Positions 24,552 to 64,000 of a DNA stretch of 64,000 bases are shown one piece after another (within the stretch, counting starts at the first letter, position 1; each line of letters starts with the position of its first letter). The DNA is from Planctomycetota bacterium (GTDB lineage: Bacteria > Planctomycetota > UBA1135). The DNA lies in the NCBI GenBank assembly GCA_003696625.1, contig RFGR01000151.1:929-64928 (forward strand). The letters are read 5' to 3'. The position numbers and the translations under genes are program-made. The notes under the pieces were generated by a model. That model saw only the letters and a list, made by a program, of their open reading frames with translations. It ran no database searches and was not told the DNA's origin.

Positions 24552-25633
24552 CGCTGCTTGCGTTCGAGTTCGCGGAGCTGCTTGATCAACTGCTTCTCCT
24601 CCCGCCCGAGCCGCTCCGGCACCCGGACGTAGACGCGGACATAGAGATCGCCGCGATGGCCGCCGTGCAGGCGCGGCAGGCCCTTGCCGCGGACCCGGAA
24701 GACCTTGCCGGTCGGCGTTCCGGCCGGGACCGAGATCCGGACCGCGCCGTCGAGGCCGGCGACCTCGATCTTGTCGCCCAGGGCGGCCTGGGCGTAGCTG
24801 ATCGGCACTTCGACGTAGAGGTCCCGCCCCTCGCGGTGGAAGCCCGGCTTCTCGACCACCCGGACCTCGACGAAGAGGTCGCCGTTCTCGCCGCCGCGCG
24901 GGGCGGCCTCGCCCTGGCCGCCGAGCCGGATCTGGGCTCCGTCCTCGATGCCGGGCGGGATCCGCACCAGGATCTCCCGCCGGCGCGGGGCCAGGCCGCT
25001 GCCGCCGCAGCCCCGGCAGGGGTCGGCGATCACCTCGCCCTCGCCGCGGCACTGCGGGCAGGTGGTGCGGACGGCGAAGAAACCCTGCTGCTGGTGGACC
25101 TGGCCGCGGCCGCGGCAGGTCGGGCAGACCGCCGGTCGACTGCCGCGGGAGGCGCCGGAGCCGCCGCAGTCCAGGCAGGCCTCCTCGCGCTGGATGGCCA
25201 GGGTCCGCTCGGTGCCAGTCAGGACCTCCTCGAGGCCGATCTCGACCGTCGCCCGCAGGCTGCGGCCCCGCCGGACCGAGCGGCCGCGGCCGCGGCCGCC
25301 GAAGCCGAACAGGTTCTCGAACAGGCCGCCGCCGCCGCCGAAGATGTCGCCGAACTGGGCGAAGATGTCCTCGATGTTCTCGAAGTGGACGCCGCCGCCG
25401 CCGCCGTTGCCGAGGCCGGCATGGCCGAAGCGGTCGTAGCGGGCCCGCTTCTCGGGGTCGGAGAGAACCGCGTAGGCCTCCGACGCCTCCTTGAACTTCT
25501 CGGCCGCCTCGGAGTCGCCCTCGTTGCGGTCCGGGTGGTACTTGAGCGCCAGCCGACGGTAGGCCTTCTTGATCGCCTCCGCGTCGGCGTCCCGGGGGAC
25601 GCCGAGGACCTCGTAGTAGTCGCGCTGGCTCAT
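24548..25633 (-). CDS. dnaJ: Molecular chaperone DnaJ
   Basis: J domain [33 protein letters not shown], a Gly-rich linker, and four CxxCxGxG zinc-finger repeats ([32 protein letters not shown]). Confidence 0.95.
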
Positions 25634-25644
25634 GGTGGTGACCA

Positions 25645-25675
25645 GGGGCGGGGCGGCGTGGGGCCGCCCCGCCCC
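25645..25675 (-). terminator. Perfect 13-bp GC hairpin between groEL1 and dnaJ (terminator/attenuator or processing site)
   Basis: GGGGCGGGGCGGC (25645-25657) and GCCGCCCCGCCCC (25663-25675) are exact reverse complements with a 5-nt loop. There is no U tract. The hairpin ends 11 nt from the dnaJ ATG. Confidence 0.55.
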
Positions 25676-25694
25676 GCGGCCGGATTCCGGCGGA

Positions 25695-27305
<1,611 letters not shown>

Positions 27306-31814: not shown

Positions 31815-32774
31815 TTGTCCGACCTCTCCGTCCAGGAGTTCGTGGACGCCGGAGCCCACATCGGCTGCCGCGTCAGCCGCTGGAACCCGAAGATGGAACC
31901 CTACATCTACGGGAGCCGGAACCGGATCCACATCATCGACCTGCGGCTGACCATCCGCGGCATCCTGCGCGCCCGCCACTTCCTGCGCGAGGTCGTCGCC
32001 AGCGGCCAGGACGTCCTTTTCGTCGGGACCAAGCCCCAGATCCGGCCCGAGATCCGGAAGGTCCACGAACTCACCGGGATGCACTACGTGGACGACCGCT
32101 GGATCGGCGGCACCCTGACCAACTACGAGGTGATCGGCAGCCGCATCGGCTACCTGGAGGAGCTCGAGAAGAAGGAAGCCGAGGGTTACGTCGAGCAGCT
32201 CTCGAGCAAGGAGGCGGCCCGATTCGCGCGCGAGAAGCGCAAGATCTGGCGCAACCTGCACGGCATCCGCGACATGTTCCGGCTGCCCGGGGCGCTGGTG
32301 GTGGTCGATCCGAAGACCGAGGTCAACGCGGTCCGGGAGGCTCAGCGCATGGGCATCCCGGTCGTCGGCATTGTCGACACCGACGGCGACCCGGACGTCT
32401 GCGACATCGTCATCCCGGCCAACGACGACGCCATCCGCTCGGTCGCCCTGGTCCTCGGCAAGCTGGCCGACGCGGTGGTCGAGGGCAAGCGGCTCCGCGA
32501 GGAGCGGGGCATCTCGGCCCCGGCCCGGGTCGAGCTGGTGGATCCGAGCGCTCCGGTGCCGAGGCCGCGGTCCAGCCGGCGGCGGCCGCCCCGGATGCCC
32601 GGCGGCCTGAACCGGCAGGTCGAGATTCAGGCCGTGGACGGCGGTCCCGCGGCGGCGCCGGCCGGCGAGGCCGCGGCCGAGGCCGCCCCGAAGCCGGCCC
32701 CGGAACCCGCGCCCGAACCCGCGCCCGAGTCGGACGGCCCGGCGGCCCCCGAAGGCGGCGAAGCGGCTTCCTGA
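31815..32774 (+). CDS. rpsB: 30S ribosomal protein S2 with Ala/Pro-rich C-terminal extension
   Basis: TTG start. LSVQEFVDAGAHIGCRVSRWNPKMEPYIYGSRNRIHIIDL aligns to the E. coli S2 N-terminus. PGALVVVDPKTEVNAVREAQRMGIPVVGIVDTDGDP is also present. Confidence 0.93.
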   Translation: MSDLSVQEFVDAGAHIGCRVSRWNPKMEPYIYGSRNRIHIIDLRLTIRGILRARHFLREVVASGQDVLFVGTKPQIRPEIRKVHELTGMHYVDDRWIGGTLTNYEVIGSRIGYLEELEKKEAEGYVEQLSSKEAARFAREKRKIWRNLHGIRDMFRLPGALVVVDPKTEVNAVREAQRMGIPVVGIVDTDGDPDVCDIVIPANDDAIRSVALVLGKLADAVVEGKRLREERGISAPARVELVDPSAPVPRPRSSRRRPPRMPGGLNRQVEIQAVDGGPAAAPAGEAAAEAAPKPAPEPAPEPAPESDGPAAPEGGEAAS

Positions 32775-60989: not shown

Positions 60990-61076
60990 CCGGGTCGGAT
61001 TCCGGATTCGAAGCGTTTCCCCCTTGGCTTAGGCGAATCGAGGCTTATTCCGATTCAACGTCGTCACGGTTCGGTC

Positions 61077-62201
61077 ATGCGTCCCAGTCCCGCAGTCCTC
61101 CTCGGTCTCCTCCTCCTCGCTCCCGCCGCCTTGGCCCAGGGGCCGGGCGACCTCGAAGGTCTTCGGCAGCGGTTCCTCGAGGGGACCGGCCGCAGCCAGT
61201 TCCATCCGGCCGGTGGTAGTTCCCGCTCGACCTACGACGGCCAGGCGGTCTATCACTCGAACGAGCTGCTGATCTGCTCTGACTGCCACGTGATGCACGC
61301 GAGCATGCAGCACAACTACGCCGGGACCACCGACCCGGTGATGGGGATCAGCTCCTTCCCGTTCGAGCCGACGCCGAACCCCAATCTGCTCAAGTACAAC
61401 AAGCTCGACCTCTGCCTGTCCTGCCACGACAACGTCGCCGGCGTGCCGGACGTCATGGGGGCGGACGTGAACGGCCTCACCCAACGGGCGGGCGGCCACT
61501 TCGAGGCGCCGGAGAGCAACCCGGCCACCGGTCACAACCTGGGTTACAACGTCGGGCCCTCGACGGGCTTCGACATCTGCATGCGGTGCCACTTCGGCGG
61601 CACCTTCGCCACCGCCCAGGTCACCTGCGTCGACTGCCACACTCCGCACGGCTACGGCAACGCCCGCAACCTGCAGTGGGCCTCCGATCCGGGGGCCGAG
61701 CCGATCTTCGGCCTGTTCGTCAATCCGGCCGCTTCCGGGATGGCCCGCTACGAGGCCGCCAACGTCGGCTATGGCACGCTCGACAACAACACTCTGCGGG
61801 AGGTGACGTCGATCTGCATCGACTGCCACCACACCTTCAGCGGTTCCTACTACGTCGACCCGAACGGCAACGGCATCCACGAGCGGCACCCCGCCTACAA
61901 CAGCGAGTACAACTCGACGAACACGATCGCCCAGGGAGCGGCCAAGGGCAGCACCGATCCGGCCCACTGGAACGCCGGCACCGGCGCCGGCTTCGACGTG
62001 CCGCGGGTCCGCTTCATCGTCCAAGGCGCAGACACCTTCGCCGGCACCCAAGTGGTGGACGCGAACACGAACGGGGTCTTCTGCTTGAGCTGCCACTACG
62101 TCCACGGCAGCGACAACGCCTTCGGCCTGGTCTGGTCGAACGCCCAGTACGGCGCCGGCCCCTCGGCCTGCGACCAGTGCCACAACAAGAGCGGACTCTG
62201 A
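61077..62201 (+). CDS. Secreted multihaem c-type cytochrome (seven CxxCH sites)
   Basis: 374 aa with signal MRPSPAVLLGLLLLAPAALAQG. The seven haem sites are CSDCH, CLSCH, CMRCH, CVDCH, CIDCH, CLSCH and CDQCH, several in a CxxCHxxHG context. Two hand-counted lines gave ~58% GC. Confidence 0.85.
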   Translation: MRPSPAVLLGLLLLAPAALAQGPGDLEGLRQRFLEGTGRSQFHPAGGSSRSTYDGQAVYHSNELLICSDCHVMHASMQHNYAGTTDPVMGISSFPFEPTPNPNLLKYNKLDLCLSCHDNVAGVPDVMGADVNGLTQRAGGHFEAPESNPATGHNLGYNVGPSTGFDICMRCHFGGTFATAQVTCVDCHTPHGYGNARNLQWASDPGAEPIFGLFVNPAASGMARYEAANVGYGTLDNNTLREVTSICIDCHHTFSGSYYVDPNGNGIHERHPAYNSEYNSTNTIAQGAAKGSTDPAHWNAGTGAGFDVPRVRFIVQGADTFAGTQVVDANTNGVFCLSCHYVHGSDNAFGLVWSNAQYGAGPSACDQCHNKSGL

Positions 62202-62230
62202 GCCGATCGGATCCCGGTGGGGAATCGGAA

Positions 62231-62262
62231 CCGGCCGGGGCGGGCTTTCCCGCCCCGGCCGG
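62231..62262 (+). terminator. Strong hairpin terminator after the cytochrome gene
   Basis: CCGGCCGGGGCGGG-cttt-CCCGCCCCGGCCGG, a perfect 14-bp stem located 29 nt after the stop. Confidence 0.7.
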
Positions 62263-62268
62263 CCGCCT

Positions 62269-62274
62269 TAGAAT
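62269..62274 (+). promoter_or_regulatory. Candidate -10 element TAGAAT, 7 nt upstream of the trp leader ATG
   Basis: The sequence gccTTAGAATccccggcATG lies immediately after the cytochrome terminator. Confidence 0.5.
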
Positions 62275-62281
62275 CCCCGGC

Positions 62282-62359
62282 ATGACGTTCGACCGCGTTC
62301 CCCGCTGGTGGTGGCCCGGCCGGCCCGAGGCGATCCCGGGCCGGGCGGCGCGCGGCTGA
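62282..62359 (+). CDS. Candidate trp operon leader peptide (25 aa, three tandem Trp codons)
   Basis: ATG...TGA translates to MTFDRVPRWWWPGRPEAIPGRAARG, with TGG TGG TGG at 62306-62314. It sits 78 nt upstream of trpE. It is below the 60-aa cutoff of the ORF track, where it is visible only as the tail of the 61586..62359 frame. Confidence 0.6.
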   Translation: MTFDRVPRWWWPGRPEAIPGRAARG

Positions 62360-62384
62360 CGCGCCATCCCGGCTCCTCCCGCTT

Positions 62385-62410
62385 CGGGCCTCCGATTCGT
62401 CGGAGGCCCG
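62385..62410 (+). terminator. Candidate attenuator hairpin between the leader ORF and trpE
   Basis: CGGGCCTCCGA-ttcg-TCGGAGGCCCG, an 11-bp perfect stem with a TTCG loop, followed by CTCCCTTTTCGG. It ends 27 nt upstream of the trpE GTG. Confidence 0.55.
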
Positions 62411-62437
62411 CTCCCTTTTCGGCCGAAGAATCCCTAC

Positions 62438-63910
62438 GTGCCCACCTTCCTCGCCACCTCCACCGCCGCCGAGGCGGACCGCCACCGGCTCGCCTGGGCC
62501 GAGTTGCCGGCCGACCTCCTGACCCCGGTGCGGGCCTTCCTGGCCCTGCGCTCGGCCGGCCATAGGGTCTGCCTGCTCGAGTCGGCCGAGGGCCCGGAGC
62601 GCCTGGCTCGGTTCTCCTTCCTCGGCGTCGATCCCTCGGCCCGGCTGGTCGCCGACCGCGGCCGCGGTCGGATCGAGGCCGAGAACGGCGAGGAGCGGGA
62701 GCTGGTCGGCTCCTCCCTGGAGATCCTGCGGGCCGCCGCCGGCGAGCGTCCAGCGCCGCGGCCGCCGCGGCGGCTGCCGCCGTTCTGCGGCGGCTGGATC
62801 GGATCCTTCGCCTACGAATGGGTCCACGAGCTGGAGCCGCGGGTGCCGGCCCGGGACGGTCCGCAGGCTCGGCAGGCGGCGGAATTTCACTACTTCCCGA
62901 CCGTGATCGCCTTCGACCACGCCGGCCAGCGGATGATCCTGATCCGGGCCTGCCCGGACGGAGCCGAGTCCTTCCCGGCGGCGCTCGACGACCTGGGCCG
63001 GCTGGCGGCCGAGCTCGCCGGCCCGGCCGGAAAGGGCGGCGGCTTCCGCCTGCTGGAACCCGAACCGTGTCCGAGCCGAGGGCGCGCCGCCTTCGAGGCC
63101 GGGGTCGCCCGGCTGCAAGAGGCGGTCCGGGAAGGGGAGATCTTCCAGGCCGTCCTCGCCCAGCGCCACGACCTGCGGTTCTCCGGAGACCCCTTCCAGC
63201 TCTACCGGGTGCTGCGGCTGACCAACCCGTCGCCGCACATGTTCTTCTTCGACGGCGGGCGCGAGATCCTGATCGGCTCCTCGCCCGAACGGCTGGTCGC
63301 CGTGCGCGGCGGCCGGGTCCAGGTCCGGCCGATCGCCGGGACCCGGGCCCGGGCCGAGGATCCGGACGAGGACGACCGCCTCGGCGCCGAACTGCTCGGC
63401 GACGCCAAGGAACGGGCCGAACACGACATGCTGGTCGACCTGGCCCGGAACGACCTCGGTCGGATCGCCCGGATCGGAACGGTCTTGGTCCGCGAGCACG
63501 CCCGGCTGGAGAAGTTCGCTCGGGTCCAGCACCTGGTCAGCCGGGTCGAGTGCGAACTGGCCTCCGGCCGCGACGCCCTCGACGCCCTCGCCGCCTGCTT
63601 TCCGGCCGGCACGGTCAGCGGCGCCCCCAAGGTCCGGGCGATGGAGCTCCTGGCCGAGCTGGAGGGCGAGGCGCGGGGCTCCTACGCCGGCGCCTTCGGC
63701 TATCTCGACGGCGCCGGCAACCTGGACATGGCGATCATGATCCGCACCTTCGCGGTCCGCGACGGCGTCGCCTCGGTCGGCGCCGGCGCCGGGGTCGTCC
63801 ACGACTCACGCCCGGAGCGCGAGTACCGCGAGACCATCGAGAAGTCGGCCGCCTTGTTCGAAGCCGCCCGGCTGGCGGCCATCCCCGCCTTCCAGGAGGC
63901 GCCGCGATGA
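62438..63910 (+). CDS. trpE: Anthranilate synthase component I
   Basis: 490 aa with a GTG start. It contains VCLLESAEGPERLARFSFLG, SPHMFFFD, GSSPERLV, RPIAGTRAR, ERAEHDMLVDLARNDLGR and GAFGYLDGAGNLDMAIMIRT. Confidence 0.95.
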   Translation: MPTFLATSTAAEADRHRLAWAELPADLLTPVRAFLALRSAGHRVCLLESAEGPERLARFSFLGVDPSARLVADRGRGRIEAENGEERELVGSSLEILRAAAGERPAPRPPRRLPPFCGGWIGSFAYEWVHELEPRVPARDGPQARQAAEFHYFPTVIAFDHAGQRMILIRACPDGAESFPAALDDLGRLAAELAGPAGKGGGFRLLEPEPCPSRGRAAFEAGVARLQEAVREGEIFQAVLAQRHDLRFSGDPFQLYRVLRLTNPSPHMFFFDGGREILIGSSPERLVAVRGGRVQVRPIAGTRARAEDPDEDDRLGAELLGDAKERAEHDMLVDLARNDLGRIARIGTVLVREHARLEKFARVQHLVSRVECELASGRDALDALAACFPAGTVSGAPKVRAMELLAELEGEARGSYAGAFGYLDGAGNLDMAIMIRTFAVRDGVASVGAGAGVVHDSRPEREYRETIEKSAALFEAARLAAIPAFQEAPR

Positions 63911-64000
63911 TCCTGCTGCTCGACAACTACGACTCCTTCACCTTCAATCTCTATCAGGCGATGGCGGCGATGGGGGCGGAGGTGGAGGTGGTCCGGAACG
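63907..64000 (+). CDS. trpG: Anthranilate synthase component II (glutamine amidotransferase), N-terminal fragment running off the window
   Basis: ATG in an ATGA overlap with the trpE stop. MILLLDNYDSFTFNLYQAMAAMGAEVEVVRN is the typical TrpG/PabA N-terminus. Confidence 0.85.
   Translation, partial: MILLLDNYDSFTFNLYQAMAAMGAEVEVVRN

Follow-up and report, generated by a model that had tools for sequence, protein, structure and literature searches.

The trp leaders of Escherichia coli (trpL; Rfam family RF00513) and Sinorhizobium meliloti (trpL, rnTrpL) have a Shine-Dalgarno sequence, and their leader open reading frames (ORFs) stop two to three codons past the Trp codons, with region 2 of the RNA, the 5' strand of the antiterminator, lying beyond the ORF. 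In both, an ORF with tandem Trp codons stands ahead of the first gene for Trp biosynthesis, there is an intrinsic terminator for whose 5' arm an antiterminator competes, and the choice between the two depends on whether the ribosome has left the Trp codons (mechanism: PMC1183508). Here we describe a leader that shares this plan, located upstream of trpE in 64,000 nucleotides (nt) of DNA from a Planctomycetota bacterium (contig RFGR01000151.1; this whole stretch is referred to as the window, and its numbering is used throughout). The parts of the leader are conserved, its helices covary, and in folding models its antiterminator depends on the position of the ribosome. As the initial annotation of this DNA had proposed for trpEG, the element is very probably a ribosome-mediated transcription attenuator that would tune trpE-trpG(-trpD) to the supply of charged tRNA-Trp; the ORF, the terminator and the overlapping antiterminator are conserved together upstream of trpE at 63 loci.

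Attenuators of other bacteria resemble this leader in further respects. The enterobacterial leu and ilvGMEDA leader peptides have a long tail past the regulatory codons, and the ribosome crosses alternatively folding RNA. The planctomycete leader has such a tail too, but the amino acids and operons differ, and there is neither sequence similarity nor an Rfam match. Because long tails exist in the leu and ilvG leaders, we treat the planctomycete layout as a variation on this theme and not as a new kind. Three tandem Trp codons, as here, are found in the trp leaders of the actinobacteria Corynebacterium glutamicum and Streptomyces. Leaderless trp leader peptides, including one for trpEGD, are described in Deinococcus deserti (PMC4007540), C. 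glutamicum is reported to have trp, leu and ilv leader peptides (PMC3890552), and in both species transcripts for amino-acid-rich leader peptides start at the start codon or 1 nt upstream of it (PMC4007540, PMC3890552). Shared with these systems is a leader peptide rich in the regulatory amino acid ahead of biosynthesis genes, but the phylum is different, no homology is detectable, and here it is the position of a -10-like hexamer that points to a leaderless start.

The element corresponds to no family in the databases searched. Rfam returned no leader, T-box or riboswitch family between 61900 and 62700 at E <= 10, Trp_leader RF00513 included, and at gathering thresholds it reported three tRNAs and nothing else in the whole window. 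Our literature search, which most subscription journals lay outside, found no paper on a trp attenuator in Planctomycetota.

The trpE leader and its relatives

The features of the leader and of the gene that follows it are these:

62269..62274, forward strand: -10-like hexamer TAGAAT, with a 7-nt spacer to the leader ATG at 62282
62282..62359, forward strand: leader ORF (trpL-like), 25 codons plus TGA (62357-62359), predicted peptide MTFDRVPRWWWPGRPEAIPGRAARG
62306..62314, forward strand: tandem Trp codons TGG TGG TGG, codons 9-11 of the leader ORF and the putative regulatory codons
62316..62348, forward strand: hairpin P1, candidate anti-antiterminator and possible pause hairpin, -27.8 kcal/mol
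62322..62332, forward strand: segment A (GGCCCGAGGCG), 5' strand of the predicted antiterminator, within the ORF and 7 nt past the last Trp codon
62338..62375, forward strand: predicted inner antiterminator hairpin, in which helix B:E pairs 62338-45 with 62368-75 and the stop codon (62357-59) lies at the apex
62380..62390, forward strand: 3' strand of the predicted antiterminator (CGCTTCGGGCC), overlapping the basal 6 nt of the terminator 5' arm
62385..62420, forward strand: predicted intrinsic terminator (attenuator), with an 11-base-pair (bp) stem 62385-95:62400-10, loop TTCG and tail CTCCCTTTTC
62438..63910, forward strand: trpE (anthranilate synthase component I), GTG start, 490-amino-acid (aa) product, the putative regulated gene

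All coordinates in the initial annotation, for the TAGAAT hexamer, its 7-nt spacer, the ATG, the three TGG codons, the TGA, the hairpin and the trpE GTG, are correct in the sequence. The leader stop lies 78 nt from the trpE start. The frame of the leader ORF is open upstream to a GTG at 61586, through a cytochrome gene that is read in another frame, and ATG 62282 was taken as the leader start because the promoter position and the relatives point there. The ORF had been thought to escape the program-made ORF listing altogether; its frame does appear there, though as a spurious 257-aa ORF (61586-62359) that shares the leader stop and that a gene caller could report instead.

Relatives were collected by a TrpE search with one genome per species, giving 80 trpE loci (L001 to L080) with TrpE identities of 47-77%. 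Nearly all are from Planctomycetota metagenome-assembled genomes (MAGs), together with the cultured Saltatorellus ferox Poly30 (L062). Four come without upstream DNA (L060, L070, L076 and L079), so that 76 are usable, one of which (L017) is cut inside the element. The leader module is present at 63 of these 76 loci and absent from 12. In it, a TAnnnT hexamer precedes the ATG of a short ORF with a run of Trp codons. Hairpin P1 follows directly on this run, the tip of a long alternative hairpin holds the ORF stop codon, and a GC-rich terminator, with its U tract, stands 13-95 nt ahead of trpE.

The short Trp-rich ORF lies 60-170 nt upstream of trpE at the 63 loci. Its Trp cluster is most commonly WWW, with WW, WWWW, WxWRW and WSWRWW as other forms, and holds three Trp codons at 39 loci, four at 11, two at 10 and one at a single locus. 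TGG occurs 197 times in the frame of the leader ORFs, as against 25 and 25 times in the other two frames, and Trp accounts for 10.8% of the residues of the 63 ORFs, although this count is partly circular because the frames were chosen for their Trp content. Loci that have no TGGTGG string retain spaced Trp codons in frame (e.g. WxWRW), which indicates that selection acts on the codons and not on an RNA motif. Within the 64-kb window TGGTGGTGG is found twice, with 0.22 copies expected; the second copy (32296-32304) is inside an rpsB-like gene, where it is read in a non-Trp frame as Leu-Val-Val-Val, and is unrelated to the leader.

A covariance model built from an alignment of 50 leaders recovers the held-out loci L033, L037, L038, L075, L077, L052 and L063 with scores of 31-60 bits. 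It gives one leader-strand match per locus, just upstream of trpE, and no full-length match at E <= 0.01 on the leader strand away from the trpE leader. The other matches are either weak ones on the reverse strand, over the terminator palindrome, or at chance level (E >= 0.19). A search of the window with the model found no second copy of the leader; a weak match at 25621-25732 is unrelated to it.

The initial annotation had also proposed that the transcript is leaderless. When a TAnnnT hexamer was sought 5-12 nt upstream of the leader ATG, one was found 6-10 nt before it at 51 of the 63 loci and before 2.9% of random ATGs in the same DNA, the first of these counts being inflated by the partial choice of leader start codons for their proximity to a -10 hexamer. 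By this geometry transcription would begin no more than ~3 nt from the AUG, with no space left for a Shine-Dalgarno sequence, although a few loci, L062 among them, have GAGG in the spacer between hexamer and ATG. The conserved position of the -10-like hexamer thus points to a transcript that is probably leaderless or nearly so, a prediction that the comparison supports. Two further sequence features often accompany the hexamer. A run of G residues lies just 5' of it, with G at -4 to -2 in 31-36 of the 51 loci (e.g. L037, 1290-1312), and a TTGCGN-like hexamer lies 16-17 nt upstream; together these may form a lineage-specific extended -10 promoter motif.

Alternative helices of the leader RNA

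In the window the arms CGGGCCTCCGA and TCGGAGGCCCG of the predicted terminator (62385-62410) fold at -23.2 kcal/mol (z = -5.6 relative to shuffled sequences), and in a scan of 61000-64000 this hairpin was the sole terminator-like site. A strong GC-rich hairpin between the leader stop and trpE is present at all 63 loci, usually with a T-rich tail. In the 50-leader alignment 97.6% of the cells in the terminator helix are paired, and nine of its ten pairs have changed on both sides. The terminator ends 27 nt before trpE in the window and 13-35 nt before it at many other loci; the 27 nt leave no room for a separate promoter, so trpE is expected to be transcribed by read-through.

A hairpin at this place could instead act after transcription, by affecting the trpE ribosome binding site or the decay of the mRNA, or Rho could act on an untranslated leader. 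Consistent with such control, U tracts are weak in some relatives (e.g. L048, L062 and L069) and the tail in the window, CTCCCTTTTC, has just four consecutive T's; imperfect intrinsic terminators are also common in GC-rich organisms. Most loci, however, have at least four T's within 9 nt after the terminator stem, and the 13-95 nt variation in the distance from hairpin to trpE allows no consistent occlusion of the start region. The antiterminator moreover takes the basal pairs of the stem, which are those that matter for intrinsic termination. We therefore regard control through trpE translation, RNA stability or Rho as improbable, and transcription attenuation remains the preferred reading.

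Upstream of the terminator, hairpin P1 pairs 62320-27 and 62329-30 with 62335-44 and 62316-18 with 62346-48. It starts directly after the Trp codons, with a median of 11 bp and -17.6 kcal/mol across the loci, and its core helix is conserved, five of six pairs having changed on both sides. The initial annotation had drawn the first helix in another register (62314-21:62339-46), and this register is not conserved.

Nearly invariant blocks in the 50-leader alignment are the Trp codons, GGCCC(G) in segment A, (C)GGGCC at the base of the terminator 5' arm (segment C) and GGCCC(G) in the 3' arm (segment D). The GGCCC of segment A is at least 90% conserved, and the spacer between the Trp run and GGCCCG is 7 nt long at 27 loci and 4 nt at 19. 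Segments A and D are alike and each is complementary to C. The A:C helix is paired in 81.6% of cells, compared with 33-56% when one partner is slid and 73.8% in shuffles, and although none of 500 shuffles reaches the observed value, such shuffle-based covariation statistics overstate significance as the sequences are related. Eight of its ten pairs show compensatory changes, and in L010 segment A has become GAGCCCGCUGG, a perfect match to CCAGCGGGCUC. The slid controls and cases like L010 argue for a real A:C pairing. This is the helix 62322-30:62382-90 for which an antiterminator role had been suggested from the window alone; the compensatory changes bear out that suggestion, and the helix extends by 2 bp to 62322-32:62380-90. 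With it, the check that the initial annotation had called for, an alignment of regions upstream of trpE, has found conserved Trp codons and covariation in the terminator, P1 and A:C.

The same blocks bear on whether the leader might work through its peptide, with WWW-P-x-G-P-[EG] sensing free Trp in the ribosomal tunnel as TnaC does, or with a short transcript or peptide acting in trans like rnTrpL and peTrpL of Sinorhizobium, in which two papers document functions in trans for RNAs and peptides derived from the attenuator (PMC6614838, PMC7298713). Residues past the Trp run do look conserved (P, then G-P-E or G-P-G). The conservation is nevertheless at the nucleotide level, GGCCCG being nearly invariant even in the third position of the CCC codon, and pairing with P1 and with the terminator arm explains it; a TnaC-like arrest peptide would have conserved residues and regulation independent of RNA folds. 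The residue after WWW varies among P, R, S, N, A, Q, H, F, C and L, and leader peptides match no Pfam or NCBIfam family (three were scanned). Arrest by free Trp would also have the wrong sign for a biosynthetic operon, and a role in trans would supplement attenuation without replacing it. We give a peptide-based mechanism very little credence compared with attenuation by the RNA itself.

In the predicted read-through fold, the partner of A is C together with the flank upstream of C, B is bound to the C-rich linker, and the inner hairpin P2 (62347-53 with 62358 and 62360-65) forms the cap. At each locus the stretch that begins 5 nt past the last Trp codon and runs through the whole terminator 5' arm was folded and compared with dinucleotide shuffles. 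Its two 15-nt ends pair with each other at 61 of 63 loci, with a single apex at 51, and the median z-score is -3.4, falling below -2 at 52 loci. The window gives -56 kcal/mol for 62315-62395 (z = -3.3), a value that none of 200 shuffles equals. The leader stop codon is in the apical loop, or no more than 3 nt from it, at 45 of 63 loci. Judging from these comparisons the long alternative hairpin is under selection. A second helix of the initial annotation (62339-52:62360-74) is real, but it turns out to be the inner part of this same hairpin and not a structure of its own.

Not every approach recovers these helices. RNAalifold on a MAFFT alignment returned the terminator only, since P1 and the linker are too loosely aligned, and the other helices were tested by explicit pair counts instead. 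Pairing of the Trp codons (UGGUGGUGG) with the CCACC/CCUCC linker, considered as an anti-antiterminator, appears in 13 full-length minimum free energy structures; it was rejected, the complementarity being no greater than with shuffled linkers (median z = +0.24; 3 of 63 loci significant).

That null result would also be expected if the arrangement were a coincidence, that is, if many helices can be drawn in any leader of 75-78% GC, the TGG run is chance or an RNA motif, and the hairpin before trpE is the terminator of the upstream unit. P1 alone (z = -0.74) and the whole leader, 62275-62440 (z = -0.93), fold no better than shuffles. The whole-leader fold, which the initial annotation had put forward as a check, is uninformative in sequence this rich in GC. 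Against coincidence stand the antiterminator hairpin with the z-scores given above for the window and the loci, covariation in three helices, and in-frame Trp codons that persist even where TGGTGG is lost; the cytochrome gene upstream, furthermore, has a hairpin of its own (62232-62263). The arrangement is kept at 63 loci across the full range of TrpE identity although the leader sequences are very different, so these are not assembly duplicates. Coincidence is already contradicted by the comparative data and its probability is close to negligible.

Ribosome position and the choice between folds

Besides the partly circular codon count, the overstated shuffle statistics and the weak U tracts of some relatives, several results weigh against attenuation. 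A simple sigma-70 scan found no full promoter at the leader, and the -35 region in the window is poor. In the equilibrium fold of the full leader the terminator forms with the ribosome at the Trp codons and at the stop codon alike, and the terminator fold is the stabler one at all 63 loci, the median difference being 19.6 kcal/mol. When the terminator 3' arm is absent, the antiterminator is favoured without a ribosome as well, and only a low barrier (estimated median 5 kcal/mol) separates the antiterminator from the terminator. As the terminator always wins at equilibrium, the switch would have to be kinetic and be decided before the terminator 3' arm emerges, as in classical attenuators; the low barrier implies that timing relative to the polymerase matters. 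An untranslated leader may terminate, as in the super-attenuation of E. coli, or it may read through.

The initial annotation had held that the switching logic could not be worked out by hand; placing the ribosome codon by codon in silico does resolve it. In this model the A-site codon and 12 nt downstream of it are blocked, the upstream RNA is removed, and the RNA made before the terminator 3' arm is folded. At every position as far as the codon that precedes the last Trp codon, the ORF segment holds the basal 6 nt of the terminator arm with a median probability of ~0.8; this falls to 0.32 when the ribosome is on the last Trp codon and to ~0.05 at the codon that follows. The window gives values of 1.00, 1.00, 0.50 and 0.01 with the A site at 62306, 62309, 62312 and 62315 respectively. 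When the ribosome edge is varied between +9 and +15 nt, the permissive boundary (median of 63 loci) remains in the Trp run or at the codon directly after it. In the folding model the Trp codons are thus the last codons at which a stalled ribosome is predicted to leave the antiterminator free. Elf and Ehrenberg define the end of the control region of an attenuator in this way, which matches the boundary at the Trp codons here (PMC1183508).

The ribosome on the last Trp codon removes a median of 8 of the 11 pairs of P1. The estimated barrier for the change from P1 to the antiterminator is 11 kcal/mol with the ribosome far upstream and 4-7 kcal/mol with it over the Trp codons, a drop that the model attributes to melting of the lower part of P1 by the stalled ribosome.

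From this geometry a sequence of events can be proposed. Transcription would start at, or a few nt from, ATG 62282, and a ribosome would translate the 25-codon leader behind RNA polymerase. The terminating fold would consist of P1 (62316-62348) and the terminator (62385-62410 plus the U tract), and the read-through fold would be the long hairpin 62322-62390, in which both strands of P1 re-pair, A with 62380-90 and B with 62368-75. When Trp is scarce, the ribosome would wait at 62306-14 and open the lower part of P1 while A stays free; the long hairpin would then zip up during transcription, the terminator would not form, and trpE would be transcribed. When Trp is plentiful, the ribosome would advance, cover A and then occupy the stop codon inside the would-be hairpin. 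The geometry suggests that a ribosome at this stop, at the apex, would act as a wedge that blocks B:E and P2 while P1 re-forms behind it. It would leave the terminator free, because the terminator begins 25 nt after the stop, and transcription would end near 62411-62420. What we infer here are the leaderless start, the stalling of the ribosome, the displacement of strands, the pausing and termination itself, and we judge this detailed mechanism of strand displacement and apical wedge to have about an even chance of being correct.

These predictions set the planctomycete leader apart from the E. coli and S. meliloti leaders in several ways. Its ORF runs 10-16 codons past the Trp run, through the antiterminator 5' strand, and ends at the hairpin apex. 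The first hairpin gives up both its strands to partners downstream, A to the terminator arm and B to the linker, unlike the 1:2, 2:3, 3:4 chain of E. coli, so that the E. coli-like layout implied by the initial annotation does not fit. The stalled ribosome would sit just outside the antiterminator strand, whereas in the E. coli and Sinorhizobium scheme it masks the competitor of that strand.

Whether such differences amount to a distinct attenuator design and not a copy of that of E. coli is a more tentative matter. In such a design the ribosome would act directly on the antiterminator, giving read-through when it is outside on the Trp codons and termination when it is inside, and the first hairpin would be replaced by co-transcriptional displacement of both strands. 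We consider this possible but on the whole doubtful. A lineage-specific, leaderless family of Trp attenuators is probably what the loci represent.

Neighbouring genes, atypical loci and biological meaning

The trpE product has the Pfam domains Anth_synt_I_N and Chorismate_bind, and its top NCBIfam match is trpE_most with 446.8 bits, which is under the curated cut-off of 517.7. The ATG of trpG (63907) overlaps the trpE stop (ATGA, 63907-63910), a sign that the two subunits of anthranilate synthase may be translationally coupled. The operon of the close relative L002 runs on as trpG and then trpD. Upstream of the leader is a multihaem cytochrome gene (61077-62201; Pfam Paired_CXXCH_1), after which comes a perfect GC-rich hairpin, CCGGCCGGGGCGGG-CTTT-CCCGCCCCGGCCGG (62232-62263), without a U tract. 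The -35 zone of the putative leader promoter falls partly within this hairpin. Weak Rfam matches on it (nhaA-II and Streptomyces sRNAs), the sole hits of the search at E <= 10, are due to chance.

Several loci depart from the common form. L043 (~2870-2960), one of the 12 loci without the module, has kept the terminator hairpin and lost the ORF with Trp codons, and L061 (2819-2890) has a single Trp codon where its relative L067 has WW. Four more of the 12, L014, L018, L024 and L025 (upstream of 3001), have no leader, and in them trpE directly follows a short-chain-dehydrogenase-like gene. The Red Sea MAGs L022 (~2700-2960) and L011 (~2800-2980) have no Trp ORF and have other strong hairpins and T tracts before trpE, in L022 the hairpin GGAGCCATCTCC...GGAGGTGGCTCC followed by TCCTTTTTC; these may be a different leader. 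The contigs of L017, L031, L040 and L056 are labelled Byssovorax, Candidatus Paceibacteria or Paracoccaceae and carry the same leader, and that of L035 is labelled Acidimicrobiia and lacks it. These odd labels probably reflect mis-binning in the source MAGs.

An attenuator ahead of trpE is unsurprising in principle, yet this one offers a clean and testable regulatory RNA in a poorly understood phylum; to our knowledge, almost nothing has been described of gene regulation in Planctomycetota. The leader constitutes a ~130-nt cis-regulatory RNA family of 63 loci that gene callers and Rfam have missed. The covariance model can be used to annotate trpE leaders in MAGs, and sharing of the element flags contigs that are probably mis-binned. 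L062 is Saltatorellus ferox Poly30, a sequenced strain with a complete genome (NZ_CP036434; leader at 2746-2938 of L062), in which the prediction is directly testable. With its stop codon at the antiterminator apex and its Trp codons at the last permissive position, the leader may be a natural case for kinetic switching by strand displacement.

Spatial separation of transcription and translation has been claimed for Planctomycetota. Attenuation requires ribosomes that translate the nascent RNA within ~100 nt of RNA polymerase, and conservation of the leader therefore argues for coupled transcription and translation in this planctomycete clade, the mRNA probably being leaderless. Should the distinct design prove true, the leader would be the first regulatory RNA family described in a largely uncultured planctomycete clade, and it would provide sequence-level evidence of leaderless translation tightly coupled to transcription in Planctomycetota.

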